A stretch of DNA of 38,001 bases from Polyangiales bacterium (GCA_048550275.1 JBLYYU010000263.1:1-38001); one strand, 5' to 3'. Positions 16,802-38,001 are shown, counted from the first letter of the stretch. Numbers and translations are program-made. The notes: generated from the sequence alone by a model not told the origin.

Positions 16802-18052
16802 ATGATTTCCGCACCGGATCTTCCCGTGGGCGTTCGGGCGCTGAATGGCGCACTGGGCTTGCTCGGCCCGCTCACGCCCCTCGGCCGGAAGCTGTCCGCA
16901 GACGAACTGCACGAGCGCGCCACGAGGCAGACGAGCCTAGCGGATTTTGGCGACGCCTCGTATCGAGAGGGCTTCGACCGTTTGATCACCTCGATCAATG
17001 AGGAGGCGCGGCTCAGCCCGCTCGGCAAACTGATCGCGCGCGAAGAGATCATATTGGCGCTCACCACTCGCCTGCAGCTCGAGGCGCACCACCAACGCCA
17101 CGCTGAAATCGGCGCCGCAGCGATCGTGCGCCCGATCATCATCATCGGGATGGGCCGATCCGGAACGACGATTCTGCACGAGCTGCTCGCGCTGGACCCG
17201 TTGAACCGCACGCCTGCGACTTGGGAAGTCGACATGCCCTTCCCTCCGCCCGAGGCGTCCACGTACGACACCGATCCCCGGATCGAGCAGATCCAGAGCC
17301 GGCTCGACCGAACCGACCAGATCATCCCCAACTTCAAGAAGATGCACCGCATGGGCGCGACACTCCCACAGGAGTGCGTGCGTTGGACCGCAGGCGAGTT
17401 CGCAAGCGTGATATTCGGCACCACCTACGATGTCCCGAGCTATTGCAACTGGCTGATCGAGCAGGCGGACATGACCCCGGCGTATCGATACCACCGGCGT
17501 TTCCTTCAACTCTTGCAGTGGAAGTGTCCGGCGGAACGCTGGGTCTTGAAGTCGCCGGGACATCTCTGGAGCTTGGAGGCAATGCTGGCGGAGTACCCCG
17601 ACGCTCGTCTGATTCAGACTCACCGCGATCCACTCAAGACCACGGCATCGCTGGCGAGCTTGATCACGAACCTTCGCGCGATGTCGAGCAAGCACGTGGA
17701 CCCGATCGCGATCGGCCGAGACTGGGCAAACTGGAACGCGATGGCGCTCGAAGAGTCGGTTCGCGCCAGAGAGTCCGGACTCATTCGAGACGAGCAGGTC
17801 TTGGACATCAGCTTCTACGAGTTCATGAACGCTCCGCTCGATCGGGTGCAATCGATTTACGATTTCTTCGACCTCGAGCTGAAGCCGAGCGTCCGAGATC
17901 GTATGAAAGACTACTTGGCTGTCCACAGCTCAGAACAGCATGGCGCGCACCGGTATCGGCTCAGCGATTTCGGTTTCGATCTCGAAGAAGAGCGTGCACG
18001 GGTGCGTCGCTACCAACAGTACTTCGACGTCCCGACGGAGGCGCAGCGCTAG
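16802..18052 (+). CDS. Sulfotransferase (Sulfotransfer_3 / mycobacterial Stf-like)
   Basis: PAPS loop GMGRSGTT.LH, WVLKSPGH, IQTHRDP. Confidence 0.85.
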   Translation: MISAPDLPVGVRALNGALGLLGPLTPLGRKLSADELHERATRQTSLADFGDASYREGFDRLITSINEEARLSPLGKLIAREEIILALTTRLQLEAHHQRHAEIGAAAIVRPIIIIGMGRSGTTILHELLALDPLNRTPATWEVDMPFPPPEASTYDTDPRIEQIQSRLDRTDQIIPNFKKMHRMGATLPQECVRWTAGEFASVIFGTTYDVPSYCNWLIEQADMTPAYRYHRRFLQLLQWKCPAERWVLKSPGHLWSLEAMLAEYPDARLIQTHRDPLKTTASLASLITNLRAMSSKHVDPIAIGRDWANWNAMALEESVRARESGLIRDEQVLDISFYEFMNAPLDRVQSIYDFFDLELKPSVRDRMKDYLAVHSSEQHGAHRYRLSDFGFDLEEERARVRRYQQYFDVPTEAQR

Positions 18053-23694: not shown

Positions 23695-24156
23695 ATGAGT
23701 CTCACACGGAAATCATTTCTCACGGGATCCTTGGCGGTTGGGGCGCTTGCGGTTCTCGAAGGCTGCGGGAGCAGCGACGACGGCGCCGCAGGTAGCGGCG
23801 GGTCTGCCGGCACTGGCGGATCGGCCGGAAGCGGCGGGACGGCCGGCTCCGGTGGCGTAGGCGGCAGCGGTGGCGCCGGCGGCGGTGGCGCCGGGGGCGA
23901 CGGCGGTGCTGGCGGTGGCCAGGATCGGTGCACCGTTGGCGGGCAGGGGCCGTCCGACACCCACGGCCACGAAATCGAAATTCCGCAGGCCGACATCGAT
24001 GACCCACAGGACCGGGAATACTCTTCGACCGGCGGGACCCACCCGCACACGGTGGCGGTGACGGCCGCACAGTACGCGGAGCTCGCCGCGAACGGATCGG
24101 TCACGGTCACGTCGAATGACACGCACGCGCACACCTGGGTACTCACCTGCGGGTGA
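23695..24156 (+). CDS. Tat-type lipoprotein with Gly-rich linker and His-rich (3x HxH) putative metal-binding domain
   Basis: TRKSFL twin-arginine variant, lipobox LEGC, HGH/HPH/HAH motifs flanked by two Cys. Confidence 0.75.
   Translation: MSLTRKSFLTGSLAVGALAVLEGCGSSDDGAAGSGGSAGTGGSAGSGGTAGSGGVGGSGGAGGGGAGGDGGAGGGQDRCTVGGQGPSDTHGHEIEIPQADIDDPQDREYSSTGGTHPHTVAVTAAQYAELAANGSVTVTSNDTHAHTWVLTCG
23781..23920 (+). repeat. Low-complexity Gly/Ala/Ser coding repeat (GSGGSAG-like linker)
   Basis: Degenerate GGC/GGT-rich repeats encoding AGSGGSAGTGGSAGSGGTAGSGG.... Confidence 0.7.
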
Positions 24157-24166
24157 GGTGGCGTTG

Positions 24167-24907
24167 ATGAAACCTCGGTCGACCTTGGTTCAGGCCGTCG
24201 TAGTCAGCTGTGTCTTGATCGCGACGGCGTGCGGCTCGGAGAGCGCAATGGAGCGCTCACCGGACGCTCTGGCGACTGCGCTGACGCCGCGGCAATCACC
24301 GGAATACTACGTCGAGCAGGCGCACAAGTACTTCGACACCCTCGACACCAGCGCCGACCCCGATAGCGCTCCGACTTATTCGACGCTCGTCGCGCGCTGG
24401 GAGCTCCCGCCCTGGCTCTGGCTGACCGGGTACGGCCGGGACAACATGGTCCTGACGACGCAACTCGCGCTGGGCCTCGACCCGTCGACCGTGCCGACCC
24501 GTCATTGCCGCGCGTTCGCCGTTCAGCCGTTCGCCCGCTGCTACGTGACGTTCGAGTACGACGGGGGCTCGTGCCCGATTTACGAGGAGTTCGTGTTCAA
24601 CGACCAGGGCGAGATGACGTTCATCGAAGCCTGGTCGGACCAGCCGGGCCTGCTGCCCACGTCAGATCCGAGCGACCGTTGGGCGGAAGGGACCGGCGTA
24701 CAACGACTATCGACGAAGGTGCCCGGGCTCGGAAACGACACGGGCCTGATCGACTTGGACTCCGATGCGATGCAACGCGCGGCGAGCGAAGACGCGGAGC
24801 TTGCCGATTTCGTCAGACGGGCTCGGGACTTCTGGCCGACGTGGCAAGAGGCAGCGGCCGAAGCGGGGCCGGACTATTTCGCCCGTGGCTGCGGCTGGAC
24901 CGAATAG
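24167..24907 (+). CDS. Hypothetical lipoprotein
   Basis: GAGGTG RBS; lipobox ATAC; Trp/Cys-rich globular domain. Starts 10 nt after the His-rich gene. Confidence 0.7.
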   Translation: MKPRSTLVQAVVVSCVLIATACGSESAMERSPDALATALTPRQSPEYYVEQAHKYFDTLDTSADPDSAPTYSTLVARWELPPWLWLTGYGRDNMVLTTQLALGLDPSTVPTRHCRAFAVQPFARCYVTFEYDGGSCPIYEEFVFNDQGEMTFIEAWSDQPGLLPTSDPSDRWAEGTGVQRLSTKVPGLGNDTGLIDLDSDAMQRAASEDAELADFVRRARDFWPTWQEAAAEAGPDYFARGCGWTE

Positions 24908-25003
24908 ACGCGCTCAACCGAGCGCACTCGGGGATTCGAAGGCGGCCCGCTCGACAGCGGCGCGCTGGTCTTTCATTAGGGAGAAGCTGATGGGACCGGA
25001 TCG

Positions 25004-26215
25004 ATGAGCACTGAGATCAAAACGAGCGACAGCCTTCACGACGTTCGCTACGAGATACGCGGGCAGTTGGCTCAGCGCGCGCAGGACATGGAGCGCCGAG
25101 GGCACGAGATCATCTCGATGAACATCGGGAACCCCGGGCTGTTTGGCTTTCGCACCCCAGAGACGATGCGAATGGCGATGATTGAAAATCTGCCGACCAG
25201 CGAAGCCTACTGCCATCAGAAGGGGATCTTTCCCGCGCGCGAAGCAGTGGTCATGCAGCAGCAAGAGCGCGGGGTCATGAACGTGACCGCCGAGCACGTC
25301 TTCATCGGCAATGGCGTGAGCGAGTTGATCGACTTGACCTTGCGCGCCTTGATCAACGACGGCGACGAGGTGCTGATCCCGAGCCCGGACTACCCGCTCT
25401 GGACGGCGGCGGTGACTCTGAACGGTGGTAAGGCGGTTCACTACCCTTGCCCGCCGGAAAGTGATTTCCAGCCTGACCTCGAGGCACTGGCCGGCCTCAT
25501 CACGGATCGGACCCGCGCGATCGTGATCATCAACCCGAACAACCCGACAGGCGCCGTGTACAGCCGCGAGGTCCTCCAGGCGATGGTGGCCCTGGCCGAA
25601 GAGCATGACCTCGTCATCTTCAGCGACGAGATCTACGACGGGATGGTGTACGACGACGCGGAGTTCGTTCCGGTCGCGCCCTTGGTGAAGGATACGCTGT
25701 GCGGTACCTTCAGTGGTTTGTCGAAGGTGTACCGCGCTTGCGGTTTTCGTGTCGGCTGGGTGGTCTTCAACGGAACCAACGAGCTTGCGACGGACTACCT
25801 GAACGGGCTCGACCTCCTCGCGTCGCTACGTTTGTGTAGCAACGTCCCAGGACAGTGGGGCGTACAGACAGCGCTTGGCGGCTATCAGAGCTTGAAGAAG
25901 CTGATTCGGCCGGGAGGGCGGCTATACGAATCGCGGCAGGCGGTGATTCGCGGGGTCGACGCGAGCGACTATCTGAAGCTGGTCGCGCCTGGCGGCGCGA
26001 TGTACGCGTTCGTAGGCGTAGACACGGACAAACTTCCCGATTTCGACGATTTGGATTTCGCGATGGAGCTCCTCGAGAAGCAGCATGTGCTGGTAGCGCC
26101 GGGGTCTAGCTTCAACGTCGAATACCGAAACTATTTCCGGATCACGGTCTTGCCGCACGCGAAGGTAATCGAAGAAGTGTTTCGGCGGATTGAGAAGGTT
26201 CTGAGCAGCGAATAG
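25004..26215 (+). CDS. alaA: PLP-dependent class I aminotransferase, AlaA/AlaT (alanine transaminase) type
   Basis: V.YEIRG, NIGNP, GNGVSELI, PDYPLWTA, NPNNPTG, SDEIY, GLSK.YRACGFR.GW, RLCSNVP.Q. Confidence 0.88.
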   Translation: MSTEIKTSDSLHDVRYEIRGQLAQRAQDMERRGHEIISMNIGNPGLFGFRTPETMRMAMIENLPTSEAYCHQKGIFPAREAVVMQQQERGVMNVTAEHVFIGNGVSELIDLTLRALINDGDEVLIPSPDYPLWTAAVTLNGGKAVHYPCPPESDFQPDLEALAGLITDRTRAIVIINPNNPTGAVYSREVLQAMVALAEEHDLVIFSDEIYDGMVYDDAEFVPVAPLVKDTLCGTFSGLSKVYRACGFRVGWVVFNGTNELATDYLNGLDLLASLRLCSNVPGQWGVQTALGGYQSLKKLIRPGGRLYESRQAVIRGVDASDYLKLVAPGGAMYAFVGVDTDKLPDFDDLDFAMELLEKQHVLVAPGSSFNVEYRNYFRITVLPHAKVIEEVFRRIEKVLSSE

Positions 26216-26240: not shown

Positions 26241-27878
26241 ATGACCAGTTCACGCAGTAAGTTACGCCCAGTTCACCTGATTGCACTCGCGTTGACGGCC
26301 GCGACTCTGCTCGGACTCGCCTTCGTCGCCCGCAAGGTGGTGACACACGGTGGGCGCGCTCTTGCTGCACCCGACTTGGTGGGTGAAGTCGCGGATCCAC
26401 CGAACCGCGCGGCTGCGGAGCCTCCTGCGCCCGGAACGACCACGGTCGAGCTCGAAGGCAGCGATGAGGTGCTGACCAACCCGGGAATGGGGTTCACGAG
26501 CTTTCACTTCGGATGGTGGTGCAATCTGCCTCCGATCACGTACCCGCCGAAGGAATGCGCCAAGCGCGTGCGTCAGCATTGGCCTGAGAACTACCCCGCA
26601 GCCGGGACGGCCTATTTCCGTTGGCATTGGCGAGACATCGAGCCCGAACGTGGTCAGTTCGCCTTCGACATGATCGACGCCGCGATTCAATCCGCGAACC
26701 AACTCGGGATGACCCTGTCCTTCCGTGTGATGACCGTCGCCGAAGGGAAGTCCGGCCTTCCAGATTGGTTGATGAACGCGCCGCACAAAGTCTCCGGTGA
26801 CTGGCGCCCGGGAGACGGCGGCAAGACGTTCTGGCCGGACTACCGCGACCCGAAGTACCAGAGCGAGCACGCTCGCATGATCGCCGCGCTCGGGAACCGG
26901 TACAACGGACATCCCGCTGTCGACCATGTCGACATCGGAACGGTGGGTTGCTGGGGTGAGTGGAACACGGCCTGTTTGTCGAACGTCGAGAGCCTCATCG
27001 AGGTCTACGAGCCCTCCAGCCGCAAAGAACGCCGTCAAATCGTGAAGGCACTGACGCAGCTTATCGACCACCACCTCACGGCCTTTTCGAAGACGCCGGT
27101 GATCATGCTGGGGTTGAACGCCGAGGACGTCGAGATGATGGTGCACGCCACTCGGGGCGGCGCAGGCTGGCGCGCAGATTGCTGGGGCGACTGGGGACTG
27201 TGGGGCGGCTCATGGAGCCATCAAGGCAAGCTCTACCCGCCGATGATCGCCGCGGCGACGGCCGCAGACGCCGAGTTCGTCGACGTATGGAAAAGAGCGC
27301 CGATTCAGCTGGAGATCTGCGGGACCCTCGAGAAGTGGAACTCGCTGGGATGGACCGCGTCCAAGCCCGACGGCAAGGTCTACAAGTCGTTCCAGTGGGC
27401 TCTGGCGCAACATGCGTCGGTGCTCAACGCCAAATCGAAGCCGGTGCCAGGCGCCTACACGGACGCGATCGACGAGCTGCTCAAGCGTGTTGGTTATCGC
27501 TTCACCGTCGACCGCTTCAATCATGGCAAGACGGTTCAACCTGGCGCCAACACCACTTTCATTTCGCAATGGCGCAATCTCGGGGTGGCGCCTGCGTATC
27601 TCCCGAGGACGCTTACCTACCGCCTCCGCGGAAAGTCCAAGAGCGTCATCTTTGCTAGCTCAGAGGACATCCGCACCTGGCTGCCAGGTAGCTGGAACGT
27701 CAGCGACACGGTCCGCATTCCTGACGAGCTTCCGACGGGCACGTACCAAGTGGACGTCGCGATATTGGACCGGGATGGCACCGCGCCTGCGACCACGGCG
27801 CTGCCCCCATTGCTCCTTGGCAACGCCGGCCGCAGAGCCGACGGCTGGTATCGGGTCTCGGCGCTCGAAGTGAAATGA
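26241..27878 (+). CDS. Membrane-anchored DUF4832-domain glycoside hydrolase-like protein (beta-galactosidase-like TIM barrel)
   Basis: N-terminal TM; NPGMGF, YFRW.W..IEPE.G.F, G.WGEW, GWRADCWG, VGYRF, N.GVAP.Y, WLPG. Confidence 0.7.
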   Translation: MTSSRSKLRPVHLIALALTAATLLGLAFVARKVVTHGGRALAAPDLVGEVADPPNRAAAEPPAPGTTTVELEGSDEVLTNPGMGFTSFHFGWWCNLPPITYPPKECAKRVRQHWPENYPAAGTAYFRWHWRDIEPERGQFAFDMIDAAIQSANQLGMTLSFRVMTVAEGKSGLPDWLMNAPHKVSGDWRPGDGGKTFWPDYRDPKYQSEHARMIAALGNRYNGHPAVDHVDIGTVGCWGEWNTACLSNVESLIEVYEPSSRKERRQIVKALTQLIDHHLTAFSKTPVIMLGLNAEDVEMMVHATRGGAGWRADCWGDWGLWGGSWSHQGKLYPPMIAAATAADAEFVDVWKRAPIQLEICGTLEKWNSLGWTASKPDGKVYKSFQWALAQHASVLNAKSKPVPGAYTDAIDELLKRVGYRFTVDRFNHGKTVQPGANTTFISQWRNLGVAPAYLPRTLTYRLRGKSKSVIFASSEDIRTWLPGSWNVSDTVRIPDELPTGTYQVDVAILDRDGTAPATTALPPLLLGNAGRRADGWYRVSALEVK

Positions 27879-27914: not shown

Positions 27915-29753
27915 TTGATTGAGTCTATCCGCCAGTTCTACGACCTGCTCACGCCCCCCGAGAGAAGTGGGGCGATGAAGGTCCTGCTCATGATGTGCGC
28001 CCTTGCGCTGCTCGAGGCGACAGGCGTCGCGTCGATCATGCCTTTCTTGGCCGTACTGTCGTCTCCTGACCTCATCGAGAGTAACTCGGCACTTGCGAAA
28101 CTTTCGGCATGGACCGGCATCACATCCTCAAACGACCTGCTGATCCTAACGGGCTCGTTGGTGTTCTGTTTGGTTTTGTCAGCGCTGCTTCTGCAAGCGC
28201 TGGTCGTTTGGGGTCAGGTTCGGTACGCCGGTGATTTAATGCACTCTTGGAGTTGCCGAATCGTGCAGACGTATCTGCGGCAACCGTACGAGTGGTTCCT
28301 CGGGAGGCATACATCGGAACTCTCGGCAACAACCATCAATGAAGTGAATCAAGCGATCTACCACGCGGTCTTGCCGATCCTCATGATCGTCAGCAACGCG
28401 CTCGTCGTGCTCGCTGTGTTCGCATTCCTAGTCATCGTCGATCCCATGTTGGCCGCGACGACGGTGCTCGTGCTCGGCGGGGCGTACGTGCTCACCTATC
28501 GGTTTCTCCGAGCTCGCATTCTCCGCGCGGGCGAATCGTGGCTCGAATCGAACCAGGCCCGGTACCACGTCTTGGCTGAAGCCTTCACCGGGATCAAAGA
28601 GGTCAAGGTCCTGCACGCCGAGGAGTCGTTCGCTGCGCGTTTCTCGTCGGTGTCCCGGCAGATGTGCGACGCGATGATCCGGTCGAAGGTGGTTGGACAC
28701 GTCCCATCGATCGCGATGCAGGCCGTCATTTTTGGCGGAATGCTCCTCGTGATTCTCTACGTGCTGGCGACGCGGGGAGGCTTCGCTGCCGGCCTACCGG
28801 TGATCGGACTCTACGCCTTCGCCGGCTACAAGATGATGCCAGCCCTTCAGAGGATATACGCCTACCTTGCGGAGATGGAGTTCTCCTCGGTGGCGCTCGT
28901 GTCCCTCGAAGAGCCGCTTCGACTCGCGAAGTTGCCCAAGAACGAGGGAGAGGCGTTTGCGACTGAGACGGCAACGGGGCCACGAGTCCGGTTGACCAAA
29001 GAGCTCGCATTTCGCGATCTCGTGTATCAGTACCCCGGGAGCGACCAGCCCACCCTGAAGCGGATGAACTTTTCGATCGAGGCAGGATCAAAGGTCGGAA
29101 TCGTGGGCACCACCGGGTCTGGTAAGACCACGACCGTCGACATCATCCTGGGGCTGCTTCGCCCGTTGCATGGCGAAGTCCTCGTCGACGGACGAGAGAT
29201 CGCAGACTCAAAGCTTCGCGCTTGGCAGGCGTCGATTGGCTACGTTCCCCAGACGATCTTCCTCGCGGATACCACGCTTGCCGGCAATATCGCCTTTGGG
29301 GTTCCGAAGGACGAGATCGATCATGACAGGGTCGAAACCGTATCGAAGCTCGCGAAGCTTCATGCTTTCGTCGTCGACGAGTTCCCGGACAAGTACGAAA
29401 GCCGGGCAGGTGAACGCGGCGTTCGTCTATCCGGAGGAGAGCGGCAGCGCGTCGGGATCGCGCGGGCGCTCTACCACGACCCCGATGTTCTCATTCTCGA
29501 TGAGGCTACCAGCGCTTTGGACAACGTCACCGAAAAGCTCGTCATGCAAGCGCTCGACGAGCTCACGCCCAGCAAGACGGTGATCATCATCGCCCATCGA
29601 CTGAGCACGGTCCGGAACTGCGACACGATCTTCTTCCTCGAGAACGGCCTGGTCTCCGGAAGTGGAAGCTTCGAAGCGCTCCGCGCGAGCCACCCGCGGT
29701 TCCGGTTGCTGGCTGAAGGCGAGACAGGCGTAGAAGCCGTCTCCGCCTCCTAG
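27915..29753 (+). CDS. ABC exporter, fused TMD-NBD (PglK/HepA/MsbA-like; probable lipid-linked glycan flippase)
   Basis: TM domain; GTTGSGKTT, YVPQ, LSGGERQR, ILDEATSALD, IAHRLST; located in a glycosyltransferase locus. Confidence 0.85.
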   Translation: MIESIRQFYDLLTPPERSGAMKVLLMMCALALLEATGVASIMPFLAVLSSPDLIESNSALAKLSAWTGITSSNDLLILTGSLVFCLVLSALLLQALVVWGQVRYAGDLMHSWSCRIVQTYLRQPYEWFLGRHTSELSATTINEVNQAIYHAVLPILMIVSNALVVLAVFAFLVIVDPMLAATTVLVLGGAYVLTYRFLRARILRAGESWLESNQARYHVLAEAFTGIKEVKVLHAEESFAARFSSVSRQMCDAMIRSKVVGHVPSIAMQAVIFGGMLLVILYVLATRGGFAAGLPVIGLYAFAGYKMMPALQRIYAYLAEMEFSSVALVSLEEPLRLAKLPKNEGEAFATETATGPRVRLTKELAFRDLVYQYPGSDQPTLKRMNFSIEAGSKVGIVGTTGSGKTTTVDIILGLLRPLHGEVLVDGREIADSKLRAWQASIGYVPQTIFLADTTLAGNIAFGVPKDEIDHDRVETVSKLAKLHAFVVDEFPDKYESRAGERGVRLSGGERQRVGIARALYHDPDVLILDEATSALDNVTEKLVMQALDELTPSKTVIIIAHRLSTVRNCDTIFFLENGLVSGSGSFEALRASHPRFRLLAEGETGVEAVSAS

Positions 29754-29858
29754 CCCTGATGCGCCGCCCTGCCGGAGCCGTGCCTACGCAAATCTGGCAA
29801 AAAGGCGCCCAATGGCGGCGTTCAATATGAAACGGTTGCGAGGCGAGACCGGCGGGCT

Positions 29859-29907
29859 CGTCCCCATTCGGTACAGGTTCCGATGAGGGGCGTTCGCTTG
29901 TGAAACG
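29859..29907. promoter_or_regulatory. Pair of 17-bp inverted repeats (putative enhancer-binding protein sites)
   Basis: CGTCCCCATTCGGTACA (29859-29875) and CGTTCGCTTGTGAAACG (29891-29907), 32 bp apart. A weaker third copy lies at 29818-29834. Confidence 0.5.
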
Positions 29908-29926
29908 CAAACGCCGTGTTCCGAGC

Positions 29927-29943
29927 CTGGCCCGGTTTTCGCA
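29927..29943 (+). promoter_or_regulatory. sigma54 -24/-12 promoter of the GlmS-like gene
   Basis: CTGGCCCGGTTTTCGCA has GG-N10-GC spacing and lies about 55 nt before the ATG at 29999. Confidence 0.7.
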
Positions 29944-29998
29944 GGTGTCCTGCACAGGATCCAGGGTTCGCTTCGACCCCTAGACCTGAAGGACGAAC

Positions 29999-31831
29999 AT
30001 GGGTGGGATTTTCTGCGCGACGGCGCACGACAACGTAGTTCCCAGCGTGATGCAAGGCCTGGCCGATTTGGAGGGCTGGGATTGCGATTCTGCGGGCATC
30101 GCGGTCTTGGCGGGCCATCAGATCCAACGGAGAAGGGCGCTGGGGCCCCTATCCTTCTTGAAAACGCTTCTCGTGGATGAGCCGATCGAGGGGGCAACCG
30201 TACTCGGCCACACACGCTCGGCGACCCACGGAGATCCGTCCCGCCACAACGCACATCCTCACGCGAGCTCTAGGGTGGCCGTCGTCCACAGCGGAGTCGT
30301 CGAGAATCATGCAGATCTCCGAGCAGAGCTGGAGCATGAGGGTGTCCAGTTCCGAAGCGAGACGGACAGCGAAGTCATCGTCTGGTTGCTCGACCGGGAA
30401 CTGGCGAATGGCGTCCATGCACTCGCCGCTCTGCAAAGGGTCCTGCCGCGGCTGCGAGGCTCGTTTGCCCTGGGGGTGATCTCCGCGAAACACGAGAATC
30501 ACGTGTTCGCCGCTCGGCGCGGCAGCCCGCTGGCTGCAGCAAGGTCCGATGCGACGTCTTGGTTGGCGTCGGAAACATCGTCTCTAGGCGGGGTCGCAGG
30601 CGAATACGTGCCTCTCGAGGATGGGCAGATCGCCGTGCTCAGCCCGGGCGGGGTTCGGGTCTTCGATTCGCAGCTCGAAGAAGTTCCCGTCAGCTGGGCG
30701 CGAGTTGTGAGCGCCCGAAACAAGAGGGAAAGCGGTCGAATCGTGACCGACGCAGCCCGCAGGAGCATTTTGGAATTGCCGGCGATGATCGAGGGTAAGC
30801 TGAGCGCGCTGCAGGCCGATTTGCTGTCCGGGGAGCTCGAGAGCTGGTGTGGTCCCCTTTGGCACGCTGAACGCATTCTCACTATCGGCGGCGGAACGTC
30901 ATTTGCGGCGGCCTACGTCGGACGGGCTTGGTTGGAGCAGATTGCGGAGATCCCGGTCGACCTGGAGCTCAGCTCGGAGCTCAAGGCCAGGCATGCCGTC
31001 CTGCCGGAGGGAACCATGGCGCTTCTGGTCTCTCGCTCCGAAGAAGACCCGGACGCGATGGACGCGCTGAGGTACCTGAAGCAGCGAAGCGTGCCAACGG
31101 TGTCACTCATCGATGCGCCTTCGAGCACCTTCGCTCGGGAAGCAGACGCAGTACTCGATTGGAGGGTCAGTCCTGGGGCTAGGGCCTCATCCGCCAGCGC
31201 ATTCACCGCGCAGCTCGGCGCGATCGCGGCAGCGGCGATCGCAATACGACAGCTTCGGGACGGGGGTCCCTACGATGGGTCCGCGCATACGTCGGTCTTC
31301 GGCGTGCCTCAGGCGATGAACAGCGCGCTCGAGGTGGAAGCTCAATGCGCTGCAGCCGGCCGCCGCATCGCAGAAGCGAATCATGGTGTCTTCCTCGGTC
31401 GGGGCTCCAGTCATCCGGTCGCGCTCATGGGCGCGCTCAACCTCGAAGAGATCTCCGACATACACGCCGAAGGCCTGGCCGGGGGTGAGCTCAGGCACCG
31501 TCCAGCCCTAGTCGCCGAGATCGGAGCCCCAGTGCTCGTGCTCGCGCCACACGATGAGACTTTCGAAAAGACCCTCGCGGACGCGCGGGAGATCGCCGCG
31601 CGTGGTGGAGACCCCATCCTCCTCGGTGACTCGGACACCGCAGTCGCGGCGAAGCGCGATGGGCTAACCTGCATTGCAGCGAGTCGAGTCGACCCGGCCT
31701 GGTCGCCGCTGGTGCTCGCGGTGCTGCTGCAATTGATCGCCTACCACGCCGCAGGCGCCCAAGAGTTGCAGACTACCCGCGCCCCCGTTCGGGAGGACCG
31801 GGTCTTCAAAGCGCAGGGGAGCGGCACTTAG
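29999..31831 (+). CDS. GlmS (glutamine-fructose-6-P amidotransferase) homologue, predicted catalytically inactive
   Basis: Colinear with GlmS over about 600 aa (DSAG, GHTR.ATHG, NAHPH, SETD.EV, AR.GSPL, FLGRG, EIS.IHAE, LQLIAYH). It begins MGGIF rather than MCGIV and lacks the PRNLAKSVTVE tail. The ORF is intact with a GAAGGA RBS. Confidence 0.85.
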   Translation: MGGIFCATAHDNVVPSVMQGLADLEGWDCDSAGIAVLAGHQIQRRRALGPLSFLKTLLVDEPIEGATVLGHTRSATHGDPSRHNAHPHASSRVAVVHSGVVENHADLRAELEHEGVQFRSETDSEVIVWLLDRELANGVHALAALQRVLPRLRGSFALGVISAKHENHVFAARRGSPLAAARSDATSWLASETSSLGGVAGEYVPLEDGQIAVLSPGGVRVFDSQLEEVPVSWARVVSARNKRESGRIVTDAARRSILELPAMIEGKLSALQADLLSGELESWCGPLWHAERILTIGGGTSFAAAYVGRAWLEQIAEIPVDLELSSELKARHAVLPEGTMALLVSRSEEDPDAMDALRYLKQRSVPTVSLIDAPSSTFAREADAVLDWRVSPGARASSASAFTAQLGAIAAAAIAIRQLRDGGPYDGSAHTSVFGVPQAMNSALEVEAQCAAAGRRIAEANHGVFLGRGSSHPVALMGALNLEEISDIHAEGLAGGELRHRPALVAEIGAPVLVLAPHDETFEKTLADAREIAARGGDPILLGDSDTAVAAKRDGLTCIAASRVDPAWSPLVLAVLLQLIAYHAAGAQELQTTRAPVREDRVFKAQGSGT

Positions 31832-31875
31832 AGAGACCCTAAAGGGCTAATCTTGCAATCTGCGCCTCTCTCCAG

Positions 31876-31922
31876 AGCCCCAAATCGGAACTCTGATGCG
31901 ATAGCTGTTGCAATTCGGCACA
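31876..31922. promoter_or_regulatory. Pair of 17-bp inverted repeats upstream of the sigma54 activator gene
   Basis: AGCCCCAAATCGGAACT (31876-31892) and TGTTGCAATTCGGCACA (31906-31922), 30 bp apart. Confidence 0.4.
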
Positions 31923-31990
31923 TCTCATCGGAGACTGGTCAGCCCCCCTGGCTTCTTCGCATCTACCGGAGAGGCAACCACGAGGAGTGA

Positions 31991-33466
31991 GTGCGAGTGC
32001 CTTCATTTCAAAGTGGCCCGCTGGTCGTGCTCGTTGGCGACGACCCGGACCAGCGCGCCGAAGTTTCTCGATGGCTCGACGAAGCGGGCATGCGCACGAC
32101 CGAATGCGCGGATGCCAAGAGTTTCCTGCGAACCATCGACAGTACGTTTCCCGATGTCGTGTGCCTGGACCTCGCCCTACCCGGCATGAGCGGCGGTGAG
32201 GCTCTCGAGGCAACGCTCCGACAACACCCTGGCGTTCCGGTCCTCACGTTCAACGCCGAGAGCTCCGAGCAGTCCGGCATCGACGCGATGCGGGCAGGCG
32301 CCTACGACTACCTAAGCACACCGATCGACCGCGACGGCGTGATTTCCTCGATTCACCGGGCTCTCCGACCGCCGCGCGAGCATCAACCGGCGGAAGTGGA
32401 CAGCACGATCGAGGAAGCGTCCTACGCGGGAGTGATCGGTCGTTCGTCGCGAATGCGCGACGTGTTTCGTCAGGTCGATCGAATCGCCGGTCGCGACATC
32501 AGCGTCTTGATCCGCGGAGACAGTGGCACAGGCAAGGAGCTGATCGCGCGGGCTATTCATGAGAACAGCCGCCGTGCGGGCGGCCCCTTCGTCGCGATCA
32601 ACTGCGCTGCGATCCCCGAGTCTCTCCAGGACTCCGAGCTCTTCGGGCACGAGCGCGGCTCCTTCACGGGCGCGCACAAGGCCCGGGCCGGCTGCTTCGA
32701 GCGGGCCGACGGTGGAACCATCTTTCTCGACGAGGTAGCGGAGCTGTCCCTCGGTGTGCAGGCCAAGTTGCTGCGCGTGCTGCAAGAACGTCGATTCGAC
32801 CGATTGGGCGGCATTCGCGCGGTGGAGAGCGACTTCAGACTGATCACCGCAACACACCACAGCCTGCGCGATATGGTCGAGGCCAACCGTTTTCGGGAGG
32901 ACCTCTACTTTCGGATCGTCGTATTCGAAATCGAGCTCCCGGCGCTCCGCGAGCGTGAGGGAGACCTCGCTCTGCTGGTTCCGAGGCTGCTCGAGGACGT
33001 CTCTGCGGGTCTCGGAGCAGGGCCGACGCGCCTGAGCTCTCGCGCAATGCGAGCGCTCGAGCGGTACCCATTTCCAGGAAACGTTCGGGAGCTCGAGAAC
33101 ATCCTTCAATGCGCGGCGGTGCTCGCGACGGGCGAGCAAATCGAGCTTCACGACCTGCCTGCTCGAGTTCGGAGCTATGACTCCGGAGCTTCGGTGCCGC
33201 CGGAGTCCGGCGTCGTGCCTGCCGGCGACAACGTGCCAACCACGATTGTCCCGCCAGCCATGAGGGTCCCAGACGGGGAGCCCTCCCGCGACCGTCCGAC
33301 ACCGAAGTCTCTGGATGAGCTTCCTTTGGCGCTCGAAGACGTCGAACGCTGGGCGGTGAAACGCGCGCTCCGCGATAAGAACGGCCGACTCACCGAGGCG
33401 GCGAAGGCCCTGGGAATCGGGCGGACGACGCTCTACCGAAAGCTCGAGAAGTACGGGCTGCGCTGA
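31991..33466 (+). CDS. sigma54-dependent enhancer-binding protein (receiver-AAA+-Fis HTH), atypical receiver
   Basis: GDSGTGKE, ELFGHERGSFTGA, FLDEV, FREDLYFR, FPGNVRELEN, AAKALGIGRTTLYRKL; GAGGAG RBS before the GTG start. Confidence 0.93.
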   Translation: MRVPSFQSGPLVVLVGDDPDQRAEVSRWLDEAGMRTTECADAKSFLRTIDSTFPDVVCLDLALPGMSGGEALEATLRQHPGVPVLTFNAESSEQSGIDAMRAGAYDYLSTPIDRDGVISSIHRALRPPREHQPAEVDSTIEEASYAGVIGRSSRMRDVFRQVDRIAGRDISVLIRGDSGTGKELIARAIHENSRRAGGPFVAINCAAIPESLQDSELFGHERGSFTGAHKARAGCFERADGGTIFLDEVAELSLGVQAKLLRVLQERRFDRLGGIRAVESDFRLITATHHSLRDMVEANRFREDLYFRIVVFEIELPALREREGDLALLVPRLLEDVSAGLGAGPTRLSSRAMRALERYPFPGNVRELENILQCAAVLATGEQIELHDLPARVRSYDSGASVPPESGVVPAGDNVPTTIVPPAMRVPDGEPSRDRPTPKSLDELPLALEDVERWAVKRALRDKNGRLTEAAKALGIGRTTLYRKLEKYGLR

Positions 33467-33470
33467 GCGC

Positions 33471-35282
33471 TCAGTGCGCGCCGCGTCGGTTCACGATCAC
33501 TAGGAGAGTGAGCGCGATGACGCGCAGCTCCATCGCCAGGTAGCTTCGGAGCCCGTAGAGATGAGCGTTGTACGTGAAATCGTAGAGCAGCTTCTCGCGC
33601 ACGCTCTCCACCGAGGTGTCGTACCCGGTGTGGACCTGCGCCCATCCGGTGATGCCCGGCTTGCACGGCGGGTGTCGATCGTCGTAGCCGGGCAGCTCGA
33701 GTGACAACGAATCCGTAATCGATGGGCGCTCCGGGCGCGGGCCGACCAAGGTCATCTCTCCTCGCAGCACCTGGAAGAGCTGAGGCACTTCGTCGAGCCT
33801 GATCTTCCGGAGGAAGGCCCCGACCGGGGTGACGCGAGGATCCTTGGCCTGCGCCCAAACCGCTGCTCCATCGGCCTCCGCGTCGACGGTCATCGTCCGG
33901 AACTTGTAGATGACGAAGCGATACCGGTTGCCGGAGTAGTCCTTCGCAACCCGCTCCTGGCGATACAGGACGGGCCCCGGCGAGTTCAAACGAATGGCCA
34001 CGGCGACCAGCGGTATCAGAGGCAACGCGAACATGATCCCGACCGAGCTACCGACGACGTCCAGCGTTCGCTTAGTGACGCGAACGGAACGCGGCGGCAG
34101 CGCGGGGCGATGGAGCGCGAGCACCTCATGCTCGGGAGGGCGGCGCCAGCGCGTTCCGTTGGCACCGAAGGGAAAGCGAAGGATCCCGGCCGCGCACGCC
34201 GTCTGTGCGACGAGCGCGTGCACTCCGAGGTCGAGGGTTCGAGGTAGCGAGAGGCCAACTCCACGCCAGGCCGTGCACAAGACGAGCACGAGGAGCAAGA
34301 CGTCACCCGCGATGGCCAGCGGGACCATCGCCGGCACGGCCATGGCGCGCAGATTCACCCAAAGCGCGAGCCCGAGGATCCAGACAGGCCCCAGGGTCTT
34401 GAACAGCTTGTGTCCGATCAGACTGAGGGCGATTCGGCCCTCACGCGGACGCAGCAGCGTGCGATAGCGCCAGAGAATCTGCAGGTTGCCGTGCGCCATG
34501 CGCGCGGTTCGCTGAAAGATGGTCGACAGTCGAGTGGGCGCAACGTCCGGTACGACCAAGTCGGTACGATAGGCGATGCGTCCGCCGGCCGCGCGGGCGA
34601 GCAACGGCCAGAGTAGATCATCGTGAATCGTGTCGGCGGGGACATCGGCGATCGCATCGCGGCGAATGAGGTAGCATGCGCCATGCGCACCGAGCAGCAT
34701 GTCGCGTTCCGCTTCGAGCGCCTTCAACCGAGTCTCGCGACTCCAATACGCACCTTCCGCGGTTGCCGTGCCGTCTTGCGCAACAGCAGCGTAGCGGGGC
34801 ATGGCGACCGCGACGCTCGGATCGGCGAGATCTTTCACGAGCTCGGCAAGGGTGTTCTCCGGCAGGTCCGCACCGACATCCGTGAACAAGACGAGCTCGC
34901 CCCGCGCGTGCCCGAGCAAGTGCTTGAGTGCGGCGAGCTTGCCGCCTCGGGCATGGAGCTCGAATAGACGGACCCCTTCGCTCTCGTAGGCGCGCGCGAC
35001 GTCGGCGGTTCGATCGCCCGAGCCGTCCGACGCAACGAGGATCTCGATGAGCTCGGGCGGATAGGAAAGCGCGAGCACATTTCGCAGCTTGCGCCCCAAG
35101 CCCGCCGCCTCGTTGTGTGCGGGGATCAGCACGCTCACCGAGGGCAGAACTGGGGATTTCGGCGTCGCGCTTCGCCTGCTCGGTCGAATCACGTACCGAA
35201 CGAGAAGCGGATAGAGCACGTACGGAGATACGAGCGCCAAGAACAAGGATGTGATGAGGACCAGATCAATCCAAGTGGGCAT
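33471..35282 (-). CDS. Fusion: GT2 glycosyltransferase + bacterial sugar transferase (polyprenyl-phosphate priming phosphoglycosyl transferase)
   Basis: N-half: SVLIPAHNE, SDGS.D.T, GGK..AL, FTD, HDD, R.AR...G..Q. C-half: KR.LD, SPGPVLYRQER, IYKFRTM, DPRVT.VG.FLRK.RLDE.PQ, VGPRPERP, KPGITGWAQV. Confidence 0.88.
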   Translation of the reverse strand: MPTWIDLVLITSLFLALVSPYVLYPLLVRYVIRPSRRSATPKSPVLPSVSVLIPAHNEAAGLGRKLRNVLALSYPPELIEILVASDGSGDRTADVARAYESEGVRLFELHARGGKLAALKHLLGHARGELVLFTDVGADLPENTLAELVKDLADPSVAVAMPRYAAVAQDGTATAEGAYWSRETRLKALEAERDMLLGAHGACYLIRRDAIADVPADTIHDDLLWPLLARAAGGRIAYRTDLVVPDVAPTRLSTIFQRTARMAHGNLQILWRYRTLLRPREGRIALSLIGHKLFKTLGPVWILGLALWVNLRAMAVPAMVPLAIAGDVLLLVLVLCTAWRGVGLSLPRTLDLGVHALVAQTACAAGILRFPFGANGTRWRRPPEHEVLALHRPALPPRSVRVTKRTLDVVGSSVGIMFALPLIPLVAVAIRLNSPGPVLYRQERVAKDYSGNRYRFVIYKFRTMTVDAEADGAAVWAQAKDPRVTPVGAFLRKIRLDEVPQLFQVLRGEMTLVGPRPERPSITDSLSLELPGYDDRHPPCKPGITGWAQVHTGYDTSVESVREKLLYDFTYNAHLYGLRSYLAMELRVIALTLLVIVNRRGAH

Positions 35283-35514: not shown

Positions 35515-36603
35515 TCATGCATTTGCAACCTCATGGTAATGTTGTGTGGTCAGCGCTGCCCAGGACTCGGGGGAATGCCGAAGGCGGACTTCGGGCCCGC
35601 GGCGGTGGGCGCCCTCGCGGAGCGTTGTCCTTTGCGATGGCAGTGATTCGAGTGCGATCGACCATGCTTCGACGTCGTCAGGCGCGACCAAGATCGCGTT
35701 TTCGCCTTCCCAGACAGCCTCAGGCACCCCGCCTACCCTGCTCGCGACGACTGGAACTTCACTGGCGGCCGCTTCCAATATCACCAAGGGGAGCCCCTCC
35801 CGCCGGGAGGGCAGAACGAGAGCTTCGGCTTTGGACAAGAGCTCAGGAACATCCCGCCGCACGCCGAGCCAGCGCACTCTATTTTCGAGGCCGAGCTCGG
35901 TCGAAAGCGCCTTCCACTGGTCCGCACAGGGTCCATCGCCGGCCACATCGAGACTGAGCTCCTTGGGCGCGCGGGGCGTGGCGAGTGCTCGGAGCAGAAC
36001 ATCCAGGCCCTTTTCTTCGCTCAATCGGCCCAAGAACAGCAGAGCGCCTTCCGATGGCGGAGAGCCGGCTTCGGAACCCGGAGCGGGAAGCGAGACCGGG
36101 TTCGGCACGGTCCGGAGCTTGGAGCGGGGCACCCCAGCGGCGACGAGCGCCTCCGTCGTCGCGTTCGACACCGCGAATACGAGGTCGACCCGCGCGTAGA
36201 GGGAGCGAGCGAGCCCCTCGTAGAGACGGGCCAGACGATCGTGGCCGGTTTCACCGTGATGCGTGACCACGAGGGACGAGCGCTTGCTGCGCGCGAAGAT
36301 CGAATAGACCAGCGCTTTGTAGCCGTGCGCGTGAACGAGCTCCGCGCCCTGCGCTCTCAGTTTCTGACGAAGATGGACGATCGAGCGGACATCGAACCTG
36401 CCTCGGGCGCGCAGGGGCTCGACCGGGACCCCCTTGGCCTGCGCCGCCGCAATGAGCTGCTCGCCATATTGCGGACAGCGATCGTCCACGATGACGAGCA
36501 GGCGAACCTCGTGTCCCTTCGCGACCAGAGCCGCGCAGCCCTGAAGGACGACATTTTCGGCTCCCGCCATGAGGCCCGGGGCGATGATGTGGCTCACGCG
36601 CAC
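35515..36603 (-). CDS. Glycosyltransferase family 4
   Basis: GAE, VHAHG, T.HG, NPV, GRLSEEKG, GDGP, PSRREGLPLVILEAAA (EX7E), SRVGGVPE. Confidence 0.92.
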   Translation of the reverse strand: MRVSHIIAPGLMAGAENVVLQGCAALVAKGHEVRLLVIVDDRCPQYGEQLIAAAQAKGVPVEPLRARGRFDVRSIVHLRQKLRAQGAELVHAHGYKALVYSIFARSKRSSLVVTHHGETGHDRLARLYEGLARSLYARVDLVFAVSNATTEALVAAGVPRSKLRTVPNPVSLPAPGSEAGSPPSEGALLFLGRLSEEKGLDVLLRALATPRAPKELSLDVAGDGPCADQWKALSTELGLENRVRWLGVRRDVPELLSKAEALVLPSRREGLPLVILEAAASEVPVVASRVGGVPEAVWEGENAILVAPDDVEAWSIALESLPSQRTTLREGAHRRGPEVRLRHSPESWAALTTQHYHEVANA

Positions 36604-37742
36604 GGTTCAGGCCCGATAGGAGACCTGAGGAAGGGCCTCTTCGCGATCTCGCTGTAGAGCTCGACGTACCGGTCGACCATGCTGTCGATGCTGTAGCTCT
36701 CCTGTATGCGCGCCCGCCCGCTCATCGCGAGAGCTTGAGCTCGATCGGGCCCTTCCGCGAGGCTCGTCAGGGCGCGGGCCAGAAATTCGGGGGCCTGGGA
36801 CGGCACCAGCAGGCCCGCTCCTCCAGCCAGAAGCTCCCCGACGCCTCCTACGTCGGTCGCAACGACCGGAACACCGAAAGACATCGCTTCGAGCAGGCAA
36901 AGCGGAAGACCCTCTCGCGTGCTGTTGAGAACGCAGGCGTCGAGCGCCGAGTAGAACGGGGCCATGTCCTCGACGGCGCCCAGCCATCGGACCTGCTCGC
37001 TCAGGCCTGCGCGCTCCGCCTGAGCGCGAAGCGTGGGACCAAGCGGGCCTTCACCCGCACAGGCGAGAATCGAACCGGGTTTGTCACGGAGCAGGCGCGC
37101 AAACGCCTCGAGGAGACCTGCGTGGTTCTTCTCGGGCGAAAGCCGGGCGGCGCAGCCAACCACGAAGCTGCCTTCGTCTGCGCCGAGCAGAGCACGCCCC
37201 TGAGCCCGCATTGGCTGCACATCCGCCGGAAGAGGGACGCCGTTGGGGATCACCCGGCATCGGCCCGGCCAGCGCTTTCGGTACTCGGCGACCTCCGGAG
37301 ACACGGCGACAACCTCAGCGAACGGTGACATGAGAGCGCCCAGGACTCGCCTCCGCCGGGTATCGTAGAGCTCGTGCGAGTGCTCGGTGTGGACCTGGGG
37401 ACAGCGCGCGAGAAACGCCGCGGGCGCCCCGTACACGAACGGGCCGACGTGGTGAGTGTGCAAGACGTCGATTCGCTCCCGCCGGAGGACAGACCGCAGC
37501 CGCCATACCAGCCTCGGATTCAGGCCCGGACCGCTCTCGACCAACATCGTCCGAATGCCCTGCTGCTCGAGCGCTGGCCGGATTGGGCCGTCTCCCAGGT
37601 AGCCGATCACCAGGCTTTCGACGCCCCGCGACCTCGAGGCGACGCTCAGCCGCTCGACCATGCGCTCGAGCCCGCCGATCGCGAAGTACTGAATCAGATG
37701 GGCTACGCGCAACGGCCGATGCGGCTTGGTTTGCTCGGTCAA
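36594..37742 (-). CDS. Glycosyltransferase family 4
   Basis: GGLER, LHTHH, TEH, IPNGV, ARLSPEKNH, STREGLPLCLLEAMS (EX7E), TDVGGV.E. TTG at 37742 chosen because GGAG precedes it and it lies downstream of the sigma54 promoter. Confidence 0.9.
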   Translation of the reverse strand: MTEQTKPHRPLRVAHLIQYFAIGGLERMVERLSVASRSRGVESLVIGYLGDGPIRPALEQQGIRTMLVESGPGLNPRLVWRLRSVLRRERIDVLHTHHVGPFVYGAPAAFLARCPQVHTEHSHELYDTRRRRVLGALMSPFAEVVAVSPEVAEYRKRWPGRCRVIPNGVPLPADVQPMRAQGRALLGADEGSFVVGCAARLSPEKNHAGLLEAFARLLRDKPGSILACAGEGPLGPTLRAQAERAGLSEQVRWLGAVEDMAPFYSALDACVLNSTREGLPLCLLEAMSFGVPVVATDVGGVGELLAGGAGLLVPSQAPEFLARALTSLAEGPDRAQALAMSGRARIQESYSIDSMVDRYVELYSEIAKRPFLRSPIGPEPCA

Positions 37743-37792: not shown

Positions 37793-37809
37793 AGCAAGTA
37801 TCGAGCCAT
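37793..37809 (-). promoter_or_regulatory. sigma54 -24/-12 promoter of the GT4 operon
   Basis: Minus strand ATGGCTCGATACTTGCT, a near-consensus TGGC-N7-TTGC match. Confidence 0.8.
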
Positions 37810-37827: not shown

Positions 37828-37876
37828 TGTCCCGAACCGGCACGGCAGAACGCTGAAGGTGTTTCGTAGTGAAACG
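37828..37876. promoter_or_regulatory. Pair of 17-bp inverted repeats between divergent sigma54 promoters
   Basis: TGTCCCGAACCGGCACG (37828-37844) and TGTTTCGTAGTGAAACG (37860-37876), 32 bp apart. Confidence 0.55.
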
Positions 37877-37928: not shown

Positions 37929-37963
37929 TTGGCCGTGATCTTGCTGTAGGCTCCGATCTTGCT
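37929..37963 (+). promoter_or_regulatory. Divergent sigma54 promoter (tandem duplicate) for a gene starting at or beyond the window edge
   Basis: TTGGCCGTGATCTTGCT (37929-37945) and TAGGCTCCGATCTTGCT (37947-37963), both GG-N10-GC. Confidence 0.65.
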
Positions 37964-38001
37964 TACGGATAGCTGAGTGACCAGGTCCTCCCAAATGCTC
38001 C

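Follow-up and report, generated by a model that had tools for sequence, protein, structure and literature searches.

A maintained but catalytically dead GlmS paralog and a sigma54 activator with a degenerate receiver as the probable remnant of a three-gene module in a Polyangiales glycan cluster

We analysed a stretch of 38,001 bp from a Polyangiales bacterium (GCA_048550275.1, JBLYYU010000263.1:1-38001), which we refer to as the window and which is an entire contig of a metagenome-assembled genome (G000; 88% complete, 4.29 Mb, 553 contigs). The window encodes, side by side, a paralog of the glucosamine-6-phosphate (GlcN-6-P) synthase GlmS in which several catalytic residues are altered, and a sigma54 enhancer-binding protein (EBP) with an atypical receiver domain. 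A first-pass annotation of this DNA had proposed that the two form a kinase-independent module in which the dead GlmS regulates the activator directly. The reading that we favor, with a probability of roughly 0.6, is that the pair is the remnant of a three-gene module (hybrid histidine kinase, GlmS paralog, sigma54 activator) within a glycan cluster, and that the activator is now a kinase-free regulator of two promoters, one ahead of the GlmS paralog and one ahead of a glycosyltransferase (GT) operon. The gene comparisons laid out below support a GlmS copy that is dead yet maintained, as well as an activator that is a kinase orphan; that the dead GlmS also acts on the activator directly is possible but less likely.

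29999..31831, plus strand: catalytically dead GlmS paralog (pseudoenzyme), 610 aa, P0001; assigned from residues, dN/dS and tree
31991..33466, plus strand: sigma54 enhancer-binding protein, 491 aa, P0002, with REC (the receiver) at nucleotides 32024-32350, AAA+ at 32432-32935 and HTH_8 at 33332-33454; assigned from Pfam, motifs and alignment

The two open reading frames share an orientation and are separated by 159 bp, as had been described, or by 165 bp if the activator begins at GTG 31997, the position aligned with the ATG of its orthologs. That GTG is the probable start, and the database relatives are 489 aa long. Two further runs from the same study yielded contigs identical to the window over 29700-33600 except for A>G at 30161, where the window has A and the others G.

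P0001 consists of a class-II glutamine amidotransferase (GATase) domain and two SIS domains. It aligns with E. coli GlmS 4amv over its full length (317.8 bits, E 1.5e-93) and marginally passes the TIGR01135 cut-off (419.9 against 418.05 bits), a score that speaks for homology and not for function. We number residues as in E. coli GlmS and take the catalytic positions to be Cys1, N98, G99, W74, S347-Q348-S349-T352, K485, E488, H504 and K603. The N-terminus of P0001 reads MGGIF, compared with MCGIV in GlmS, with Gly in place of the Cys1 nucleophile. At the oxyanion and channel positions we found N98S and W74S, with G99 retained. The phosphate loop reads SRSEED rather than SQSGET (Q348 and T352 altered), K485 is Asn, and the C-terminal DQPRNLAKSVTVE tail, which carries K603, has given way to an unrelated sequence, while E488 and H504 are retained. 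A mis-called start that would restore an N-terminal Cys was considered and rejected. No start codon lies between 29999 and the preceding stop, so the frame cannot reach further upstream, and the sole nearby Cys (residue 6) comes after a Phe codon and is aligned with Gly5 of GlmS. Judged from these residues, P0001 is unable to catalyse the GlmS reaction by the known mechanism, in agreement with the first-pass annotation. A true GlmS (792 bits), 32% identical to P0001, is encoded on another contig of the same genome, and a housekeeping GlmS was present in all six genomes checked (G000, plus G452, G155, G085, G432 and G439, where it scores 795-806 bits). G085 has three GlmS-family genes over the glmS cut-off (806, 763 and 657 bits), the third being the active paralog that adjoins an activator in the locus L016.

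Relatives were gathered by scans of 185,579 species genomes, which added 8 loci of the clade, and of JGI metagenomes, which added 16 (we denote related loci by L, genomes by G and proteins by P numbers). A database search with the paralog returned about 34 protein clusters at 46-87% identity, followed by a drop to about 39%, the level of ordinary GlmS. In a quick IQ-TREE run, 38 dead sequences formed a single clade (SH-aLRT 99), nested among Cys1-bearing paralogs that retain all the other catalytic motifs, including DRPRNLAKSVTVE. Among 401 genomes sampled from the phylum, the paralog was confined to the window's genus, where it occurs in 3 of the 18 other genomes. The Cys1 position in 31 dead-clade sequences is occupied by Gly (22), Ser (7), Ala (1) or Asp (1). 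In the same 31 sequences the glutamine pocket is largely kept (T76 in 30, G99 in 31, D123 in 28, R73 and H77 in 25 each), with N98 retained in 12. At the isomerase site, 20 have Asp at T352, 20 have Ala at E488 and 3 retain K485. This degenerate sugar-phosphate site argues against a protein that senses amino-sugar phosphate through its canonical site.

All full-length dead copies that we fetched have intact frames of 601-612 aa without stops. Their dN/dS values are 0.17-0.25 at dS 0.19-0.30. Calculated for these pairs, the activator has 0.13-0.24, the GT2-PGT gene 0.10-0.18 and the two GT4 genes 0.16-0.29. The dead GlmS thus falls within the range of its neighbors, and the protein is therefore under purifying selection. 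Conservation extends over the whole length (mean pairwise identity 62% for the GATase domain, 52-54% for the SIS domains) and includes clade-specific motifs such as WCGPLW. The protein does diverge faster, with 48-66% amino acid identity to the window copy versus about 60-80% for its neighbors. Altogether, these comparisons support a GlmS copy that is catalytically dead yet maintained.

The activator, P0002, matches the Pfam domains Response_reg, Sigma54_activat (PF00158, 229.9 bits), AAA_lid_14 and HTH_8. Its NCBIfam matches include GlrR (288 bits, under its cut-off), and FleQ and VpsR chains are among its structural relatives found by sequence. The AAA+ domain looks functional, as had been noted: it retains Walker A (GDSGTGKE), the GSFTGA loop, Walker B (IFLDEVAE) and RFREDLYFR, the arginine finger included, and the AAA+ motifs are intact in all of the orthologs as well. 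The phosphorylation-driven switch of receivers needs a conserved Lys and a conserved Thr/Ser. In P0002, the quintet reads D17 D18 D60 N88 T110 where the canonical one is D D D T/S K, which bears out the earlier description of an acidic pair and phospho-Asp accompanied by Asn for Thr/Ser and Thr for Lys. The Asn and Thr substitutions are real, since they are common to the two closest database relatives, P0122 (94% identical) and P0123 (80%), which share the DDDNT quintet, and are reproduced in the contigs of the two other runs. They do not, however, characterize the module at large: both are confined to a small sub-lineage, and the Lys is kept in 17/17 other orthologs from the fetched loci. Across the ortholog clade, 24 of 40 receivers are non-canonical, compared with 0 of 9 among outgroup activators. 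The acidic pair can be GD, RD, HD, DN, GN, QN or CD; the phospho-Asp is replaced by Asn (P0127) or Glu (P0128/L103), the Thr by Gly, Ala or Asn, and the Lys by Thr or Arg. In LuxO, the low-cell-density state is the phosphorylated state. LuxO D47E, the equivalent of the Asp-to-Glu change, is described as mimicking the low-cell-density state (PMC8738867).

We found no histidine kinase in the window, as previously reported for this DNA: all 42 HATPase_c matches of the genome lie on other contigs, and tblastn with the relatives' kinases gave no match in the window. The 245 bp between the end of an upstream ABC exporter gene and the start of the dead GlmS leave too little room for a kinase gene. 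Relatives fill this position differently. In L015, L016 and L102 the gene immediately before the GlmS paralog encodes a hybrid kinase (HisKA-HATPase_c-REC, with Hpt where detectable), and the C-terminus of a hybrid kinase is visible at the start of L017. In the most basal loci (L019, L098, L100 and L101), H-NOX genes and a kinase of the form HNOBA-(PAS)-HisKA-HATPase-REC-Hpt stand directly upstream of an active paralog, and a kinase is retained at 5/5 active-paralog loci whose upstream DNA is long enough. The space ahead of the paralog is too short for one in the window, L012, L103, L013, L014, L018, L090-L094 and L099. On the GlmS tree these kinase-less lineages are spread over at least three separate dead-clade branches, with a frameshifted kinase in a fourth. 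An ortholog of the L015 kinase was not found in G000 (88% complete) or in the near-complete G452 and G155, whose best matches, like those of G000, are generic (30-32% identical); the syntenic ortholog in G085 is 41% identical.

Receivers are canonical beside an intact or recently broken kinase (L015, L016, L098 and L095/L096), L017 excepted, and altered in every kinase-less locus, differently by lineage. The varied quintet changes are thus explained by the presence of a neighboring kinase in some lineages and its loss in others. Because L015 combines a dead GlmS with an intact kinase and a canonical receiver, the death of GlmS and kinase independence must be separate events. Together, the missing kinase ortholog in three genomes and the excess of non-canonical receivers (24/40 against 0/9) support the earlier proposal of a kinase-independent activator, here a kinase orphan with a degenerate receiver.

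Several features of the relatives' kinases are worth recording. One or two H-NOX genes and a kinase lie ahead of the active GlmS at L098:2161-6419, L019:4425-7825, L100:36-3655 and L101:67-4101, and in L098 the activator adjoins these genes; a PGM/PMM (GlmM-like) gene follows downstream in L098 and L100. These basal loci look like a nitric oxide (NO)-responsive relay with amino-sugar supply as its output. In two separate metagenome assemblies, the kinase upstream of the dead GlmS is split by an identical frameshift (L095:1054-2551 and L096:1656-3162), and it is probably a real pseudogene caught during loss. The hybrid kinases at L015:6225-7817, L016:6221-7897 and L102:5816-7354 have HisKA from residue 13-46 onward and lack any recognisable sensor domain. 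An accessory sensor may be required, and the GlmS paralog encoded between kinase and activator would be the obvious candidate.

Are the dead GlmS and the activator genes conserved as a pair? In the window's family (88 genomes), the paralog was found in 9 genomes, an activator ortholog in 10 (E <= 1e-130) and both in 8. In all 8 they are adjacent and on the same strand, with the activator downstream. By tblastn, the activator lies directly downstream in 16/16 dead-GlmS loci with enough DNA, which amount to 11 distinct lineages and include several near-duplicates; three further dead loci end too early. The linkage expected by the first-pass annotation is therefore found. Of the six active-paralog loci, the activator adjoins the paralog in L016, where the two stay paired although all other neighbors differ, and lies 4.6 kb upstream on the other strand in L098. 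L019 has no activator within 8 kb, none is present on the short contigs L100 and L101, and L104 is too short to tell. G432 (81% complete) has an active paralog, with no activator ortholog found. G428 has an activator ortholog without a dead-GlmS match; it is no counter-example because its contig ends at the activator, 7 bases past the match. G170 encodes a 58%-identical activator-like gene without the cluster genes, which we handled as a more distant relative. Since an active paralog also adjoins the activator in L016, the adjacency is older than the death of GlmS.

Both genes are preceded by conserved sequences, and the one ahead of the dead GlmS resembles a sigma54 promoter whose elements recur ahead of the GT operon:

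29817..29835, no strand assigned: upstream palindrome-like element P1a, CGTTC-N5-GAAACG, in a conserved block; enhancer role inferred
29860..29875, no strand assigned: upstream palindrome P2 (GTCCCCATTCGGTACA), with an exact ATTCGGNACA match
29890..29908, no strand assigned: upstream palindrome P1b, GCGTTC-N6-GAAACGC, conserved in dead and active loci
29928..29943, plus strand: sigma54-type -24/-12 element TGGCCCGGTTTTCGCA, 56 nucleotides before the dead-GlmS ATG, from motif search and conservation
31907..31940, plus strand: conserved intergenic block GTTGCAATTCGGCACA...ATCGGAGACT, from an alignment of 12 intergenic regions
37793..37808, minus strand: sigma54-type -24/-12 element TGGCTCGATACTTGCT before the GT operon, one mismatch to consensus
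37829..37843, minus strand: palindrome P2' (GTGCCGGTTCGGGAC) in the GT operon upstream region
37861..37876, minus strand: palindrome P1' (CGTTTCACTACGAAAC), the sole exact GTTTC-N4-7-GAAAC in the window

A -24/-12 element TGGCCCGnTTTTCGCA lies 66-96 nucleotides upstream of the GlmS paralog in 23/23 loci, dead and active, within variable flanks. A TGGCTCGATACTTGCT-type element precedes the GT operon in 8/8 loci that hold that region. Two palindromes are common to both promoter regions, P1 (CGTT(T)C-N5/6-GAAACG) and P2 (GTnCC-N5-GGnAC, containing ATTCGGnACA). The P2-type motif occurs at three places, before the dead GlmS, before the GT operon and before the activator gene, where an exact ATTCGGNACA lies at 31913-31922 within the conserved block. 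That block is possibly the activator gene's own promoter, overlapped by a P2-like operator. When five genomes were searched with the composite pattern of P2 plus -24/-12, essentially only the two promoters described here stood out, the other matches being at control level. A genome-wide strict P1 search (CGTTYC-N4-7-GAAACG) for a regulon was discarded because it missed the window's own imperfect sites. Over 29700-33600, a scan for sigma70-type promoters found 0 promoter-like sites, and a terminator scan found one terminator-like site, within the activator gene; this is fewer than in shuffled sequences and uninformative.

The history that we propose for the pair runs as follows. In the ancestral state, the activator would have driven an extra supply of GlcN-6-P under an NO-sensing H-NOX/kinase relay. 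The GlmS would then have lost catalysis while remaining under selection, and later the kinase would have been lost in several dead-GlmS branches, with degeneration of the receivers. In the window, the activator is predicted to bind the shared palindromes and to drive the GlmS-paralog and GT-operon promoters, presumably without phosphorylation. Its output would depend on how much activator is made, the gene being preceded by the promoter-like block with its operator-like motif, and perhaps on a further signal. The dead GlmS would be a non-catalytic protein whose likeliest role, because its glutamine-binding residues are mostly retained and its sugar-phosphate site is not, is that of a glutamine-binding regulator of the module or of amino-sugar supply. 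The adjacency of the two genes is explained first by membership in one regulon, since the GlmS paralog is an apparent target of the activator through a conserved sigma54 promoter that shares elements with that of the GT operon. The first-pass annotation had proposed partner control; the adjacency predates GlmS death (L016), and regulon membership is its simpler cause.

Several observations weigh against this history. The window receiver retains its acidic pair and phospho-Asp, which an unlinked kinase or acetyl phosphate could phosphorylate, and the genome is 88% complete with its 42 HATPase_c matches elsewhere. L017 has a kinase and nevertheless carries a D-to-N change at one acidic residue, so the correlation between kinase and receiver is imperfect. 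The relatives are close kin, all of one genus in the genomes sampled, and the linkage counts are therefore not independent. Retention of the glutamine pocket is read from an alignment. Finally, the -24/-12 element of the window departs from the consensus (TGGCCC...TCGCA), and motifs of this kind, allowing <=2 mismatches, show no enrichment in the window (16 observed versus 11.9 expected). Because motif counts are not above chance, the case for the promoters rests on their conservation.

We also considered direct binding of the dead GlmS to the activator, whether as co-activator or as anti-activator. The pseudoenzyme would then be a sensor that binds glutamine without hydrolysing it, signals glutamine or nitrogen status and has replaced the hybrid kinase as the input, acting on the degenerate receiver or on the AAA+ domain; with its own gene driven by the activator, the two would form a feedback loop like that of PspA-PspF. 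Much of what we found is compatible with such a takeover. The pair is retained in 16/16 dead-GlmS loci, and in L016 despite the change of all other neighbors; the pseudoenzyme is under purifying selection, its glutamine-site residues are largely retained and its gene has a conserved sigma54 promoter. Moreover, the dead GlmS is retained in every kinase-less lineage, and the kinase is absent in at least three dead-clade branches, frameshifted in a fourth and intact at 5/5 active paralogs, a pattern that fits a kinase made dispensable. Against this, the adjacency is ancestral and already explained by regulon membership, L015 has a dead GlmS with an intact kinase and a canonical receiver, and the putatively phosphomimetic Asp-to-Glu change in one lineage points to constitutive activity and not to a partner switch. 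In proteins of 1069-3050 aa, a search for GlmS-activator fusions gave no match at E <= 1e-20, which is weak evidence. A complex prediction for the dead GlmS (610 aa) with activator residues 1-385, run without controls, gave an ipSAE of 0.00 in both runs and counts neither for nor against binding. We regard direct partner control as possible and, on balance, doubtful. If it were true, a metabolic pseudoenzyme would have been recruited as the signal-input protein of an EBP, and the absence of the kinase in several dead-GlmS branches would be the evolutionary signature of the takeover.

The dead GlmS could instead act on amino-sugar metabolism, for example by pairing with the housekeeping GlmS (a dimer) or with another pathway enzyme, and so tune GlcN-6-P supply when the cluster is induced. 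Dead paralogs tune some other enzymes in this manner, and there is a precedent in the AdoMetDC prozyme, a dead paralog described as activating its enzyme partner (PMC6221367). A housekeeping GlmS was present in 6/6 genomes checked, the ancestral active paralog evidently served as an additional, inducible GlmS (L098 and L100 also encode a PGM/PMM close to it), and the dead protein is conserved over its whole length (62% in GATase, 52-54% in SIS). However, identity between the paralog and the true GlmS of this genome is only 32%, and a metabolic role leaves its constant adjacency to the activator unexplained; we consider such a role unlikely.

No more probable, in our view, is an ordinary response regulator that is phosphorylated at D60 by an unlinked kinase, in which the Thr and Lys changes would do no more than retune the switch and the dead GlmS would have no bearing on signalling. 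In the window, the acidic pair and D60 are indeed intact, and 42 HATPase_c matches lie on other contigs of a genome that is 88% complete. Yet the switch Lys and Thr/Ser are both replaced in the window and its two closest relatives, sister lineages degrade other quintet residues, including the phospho-Asp (Asn in P0127, Glu in P0128/L103), and an ortholog of the cognate kinase was not found.

Slightly less probable still is that a small ligand, for instance cyclic di-GMP (c-di-GMP), controls the activator, as in EpsI/Nla24, VpsR and FleQ, with no part in that control for the dead GlmS. The setting invites the comparison: EpsI/Nla24 is an NtrC-like activator of the same domain order in a myxobacterial polysaccharide locus, it is reported to bind c-di-GMP with a KD of 0.53 uM (PMC4877007), and FleQ and VpsR chains are among the structural relatives of P0002 found by sequence. 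The FleQ motifs are, however, described as only partly present even in EpsI/Nla24 (PMC4877007), and there is no diguanylate cyclase among the window genes scanned. Lastly, that the dead GlmS is a decaying, functionless relic kept by transcription read-through to the activator gene is disfavored and very improbable: its faster evolution (48-66% against about 60-80% identity) would fit, but the frames of 601-612 aa are intact and free of stops in all full-length copies fetched, dN/dS (0.17-0.25) lies in the neighbors' range, clade-specific motifs such as WCGPLW are conserved, and the activator gene has a conserved upstream block of its own.

How do these two proteins compare with known systems? 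The paralog shares with GlmS (TIGR01135; 4amv, 1jxa, 2j6h) its full-length homology and most glutamine-pocket residues. It differs in the replacement of Cys1 by Gly, the altered N98, W74, Q348, T352 and K485, the loss of the K603 tail and the presence of a separate true GlmS in the genome. The activator has the REC-AAA+-HTH_8 architecture, Walker A and B, a GAFTGA-type loop (GSFTGA) and the arginine finger of NtrC-family EBPs (LuxO 5ep0, NtrC1 1ny5, NtrC). Unlike these, its receiver lacks the switch Thr/Ser and Lys, and the cognate kinase present in sister lineages is missing here.

An activator without a working phosphorylation input, encoded beside a gene for a non-DNA-binding protein, is also seen in PspA-PspF, NifL-NifA and FleN-FleQ. 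The pspA gene carries a sigma54 promoter. Likewise, the candidate partner gene here is linked to the activator (16/16 dead loci) and has a sigma54-type promoter sequence (23/23 loci). NifA (PMC12998190) and FleQ (PMC8528422) are each described as controlled by a partner protein, the anti-activators NifL and FleN, respectively. The candidate partner in the window is, in contrast to PspA, NifL and FleN, a dead metabolic enzyme unrelated to them, and the window activator still has a receiver. EpsI/Nla24 of M. xanthus is a myxobacterial REC-AAA+-HTH activator encoded within a polysaccharide locus (PMC4877007); the likeness is one of setting and domain order, and the passages there on Nla24 and its receiver name no GlmS-like gene beside epsI (PMC4877007).

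In the H-NOX-HqsK-LuxU and HahK-SypF-syp phosphorelays, H-NOX kinases are reported to feed LuxU or the syp polysaccharide locus (PMC8738867). The basal relatives L019, L098, L100 and L101 resemble these in having H-NOX and a hybrid kinase directly upstream of the active GlmS paralog, whereas the window has neither an H-NOX gene nor a kinase. We did not find a GlmS paralog as the output gene of an H-NOX relay in the open-access literature. In enterobacteria, the GlrK/GlrR-GlmY/GlmZ-RapZ system, with sigma54 and an NtrC-type activator, is described as governing the supply of GlcN-6-P synthase (PMC3162934). There, small RNAs act on the housekeeping glmS, while here the sigma54-type promoter directly precedes a second, dead GlmS gene. 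Nothing relevant on a dead or inactive GlmS paralog, or on a link between GlmS, sigma54 and myxobacteria, turned up in open-access full text, subscription journals and supplements lying outside the search.

A full-length dead GlmS kept by selection is thus a pseudoenzyme that we did not find described, and one that is small and soluble, so that its ligand and partner are directly testable. Its relatives form a graded series, from H-NOX, kinase and activator with an active extra GlmS, through the same set with a dead GlmS, to loci where the kinase is absent and the receivers are variously degraded. This series offers useful data on the escape of a two-component activator from kinase control, and it includes an Asp-to-Glu change of the type used experimentally as a phosphomimic. 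The two conserved putative sigma54 promoters and their shared palindromes define a compact regulon that could be rebuilt in E. coli despite the uncultured hosts. Should the dead GlmS have no signalling role, the locus still provides a clear example of a pseudoenzyme derived from an inducible gene for amino-sugar supply, of modest general interest.

The genes around the pair, which would be best explained as a small lipid-linked glycan or exopolysaccharide cluster, are the following:

26241..27878, plus strand: DUF4832/GH42-like protein, first gene of the conserved block (Pfam DUF4832, Glyco_hydro_42)
27915..29753, plus strand: ABC exporter, PglK/MsbA-like (Pfam ABC_membrane, ABC_tran; NCBIfam PglK 308 bits, under cut-off)
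33471..35282, minus strand: GT2 fused to a polyprenyl-phosphate sugar-phosphotransferase (Bac_transf), at the end of the convergent GT operon (Pfam)
35515..36603, minus strand: GT4 glycosyltransferase (Pfam; orthologs in related loci)
36594..37742, minus strand: GT4 glycosyltransferase, first gene of the GT operon, probable start TTG 37742 (Pfam, ortholog alignment)

Orthologs of the DUF4832 gene, 68-75% identical, lie upstream of the pair in L012-L015, L018, L090-L093, L099, L102 and partly in L103. The ABC exporter was found in L012, L015, L099, L102 and partly in L095/L096, and GT2-Bac_transf orthologs (70-78% identity) hold the same position in related loci. The conserved block seems to begin at the DUF4832 gene, because the genes before it (24116-26215, a hypothetical gene and a class I/II aminotransferase) have no tblastn matches in related loci; L012 has pyruvate:ferredoxin oxidoreductase genes at that position. 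For the first GT4 gene, the called start at TTG 37817 is probably wrong. A start there would run into the sigma54 element, the alignment of most orthologs begins only at residue 21/22, and GGAG...TTG is conserved at 37753-37740. Further upstream of the GT promoter, at about 37935-37970 on the minus strand, two direct copies of GCAAGATC lie about 10 nucleotides apart and are conserved in orthologous loci; they may be the site of another regulator or part of a divergent promoter. A Sulfotransfer_3 sulfotransferase gene is located at 16802-18052, 8 kb upstream of the cluster.

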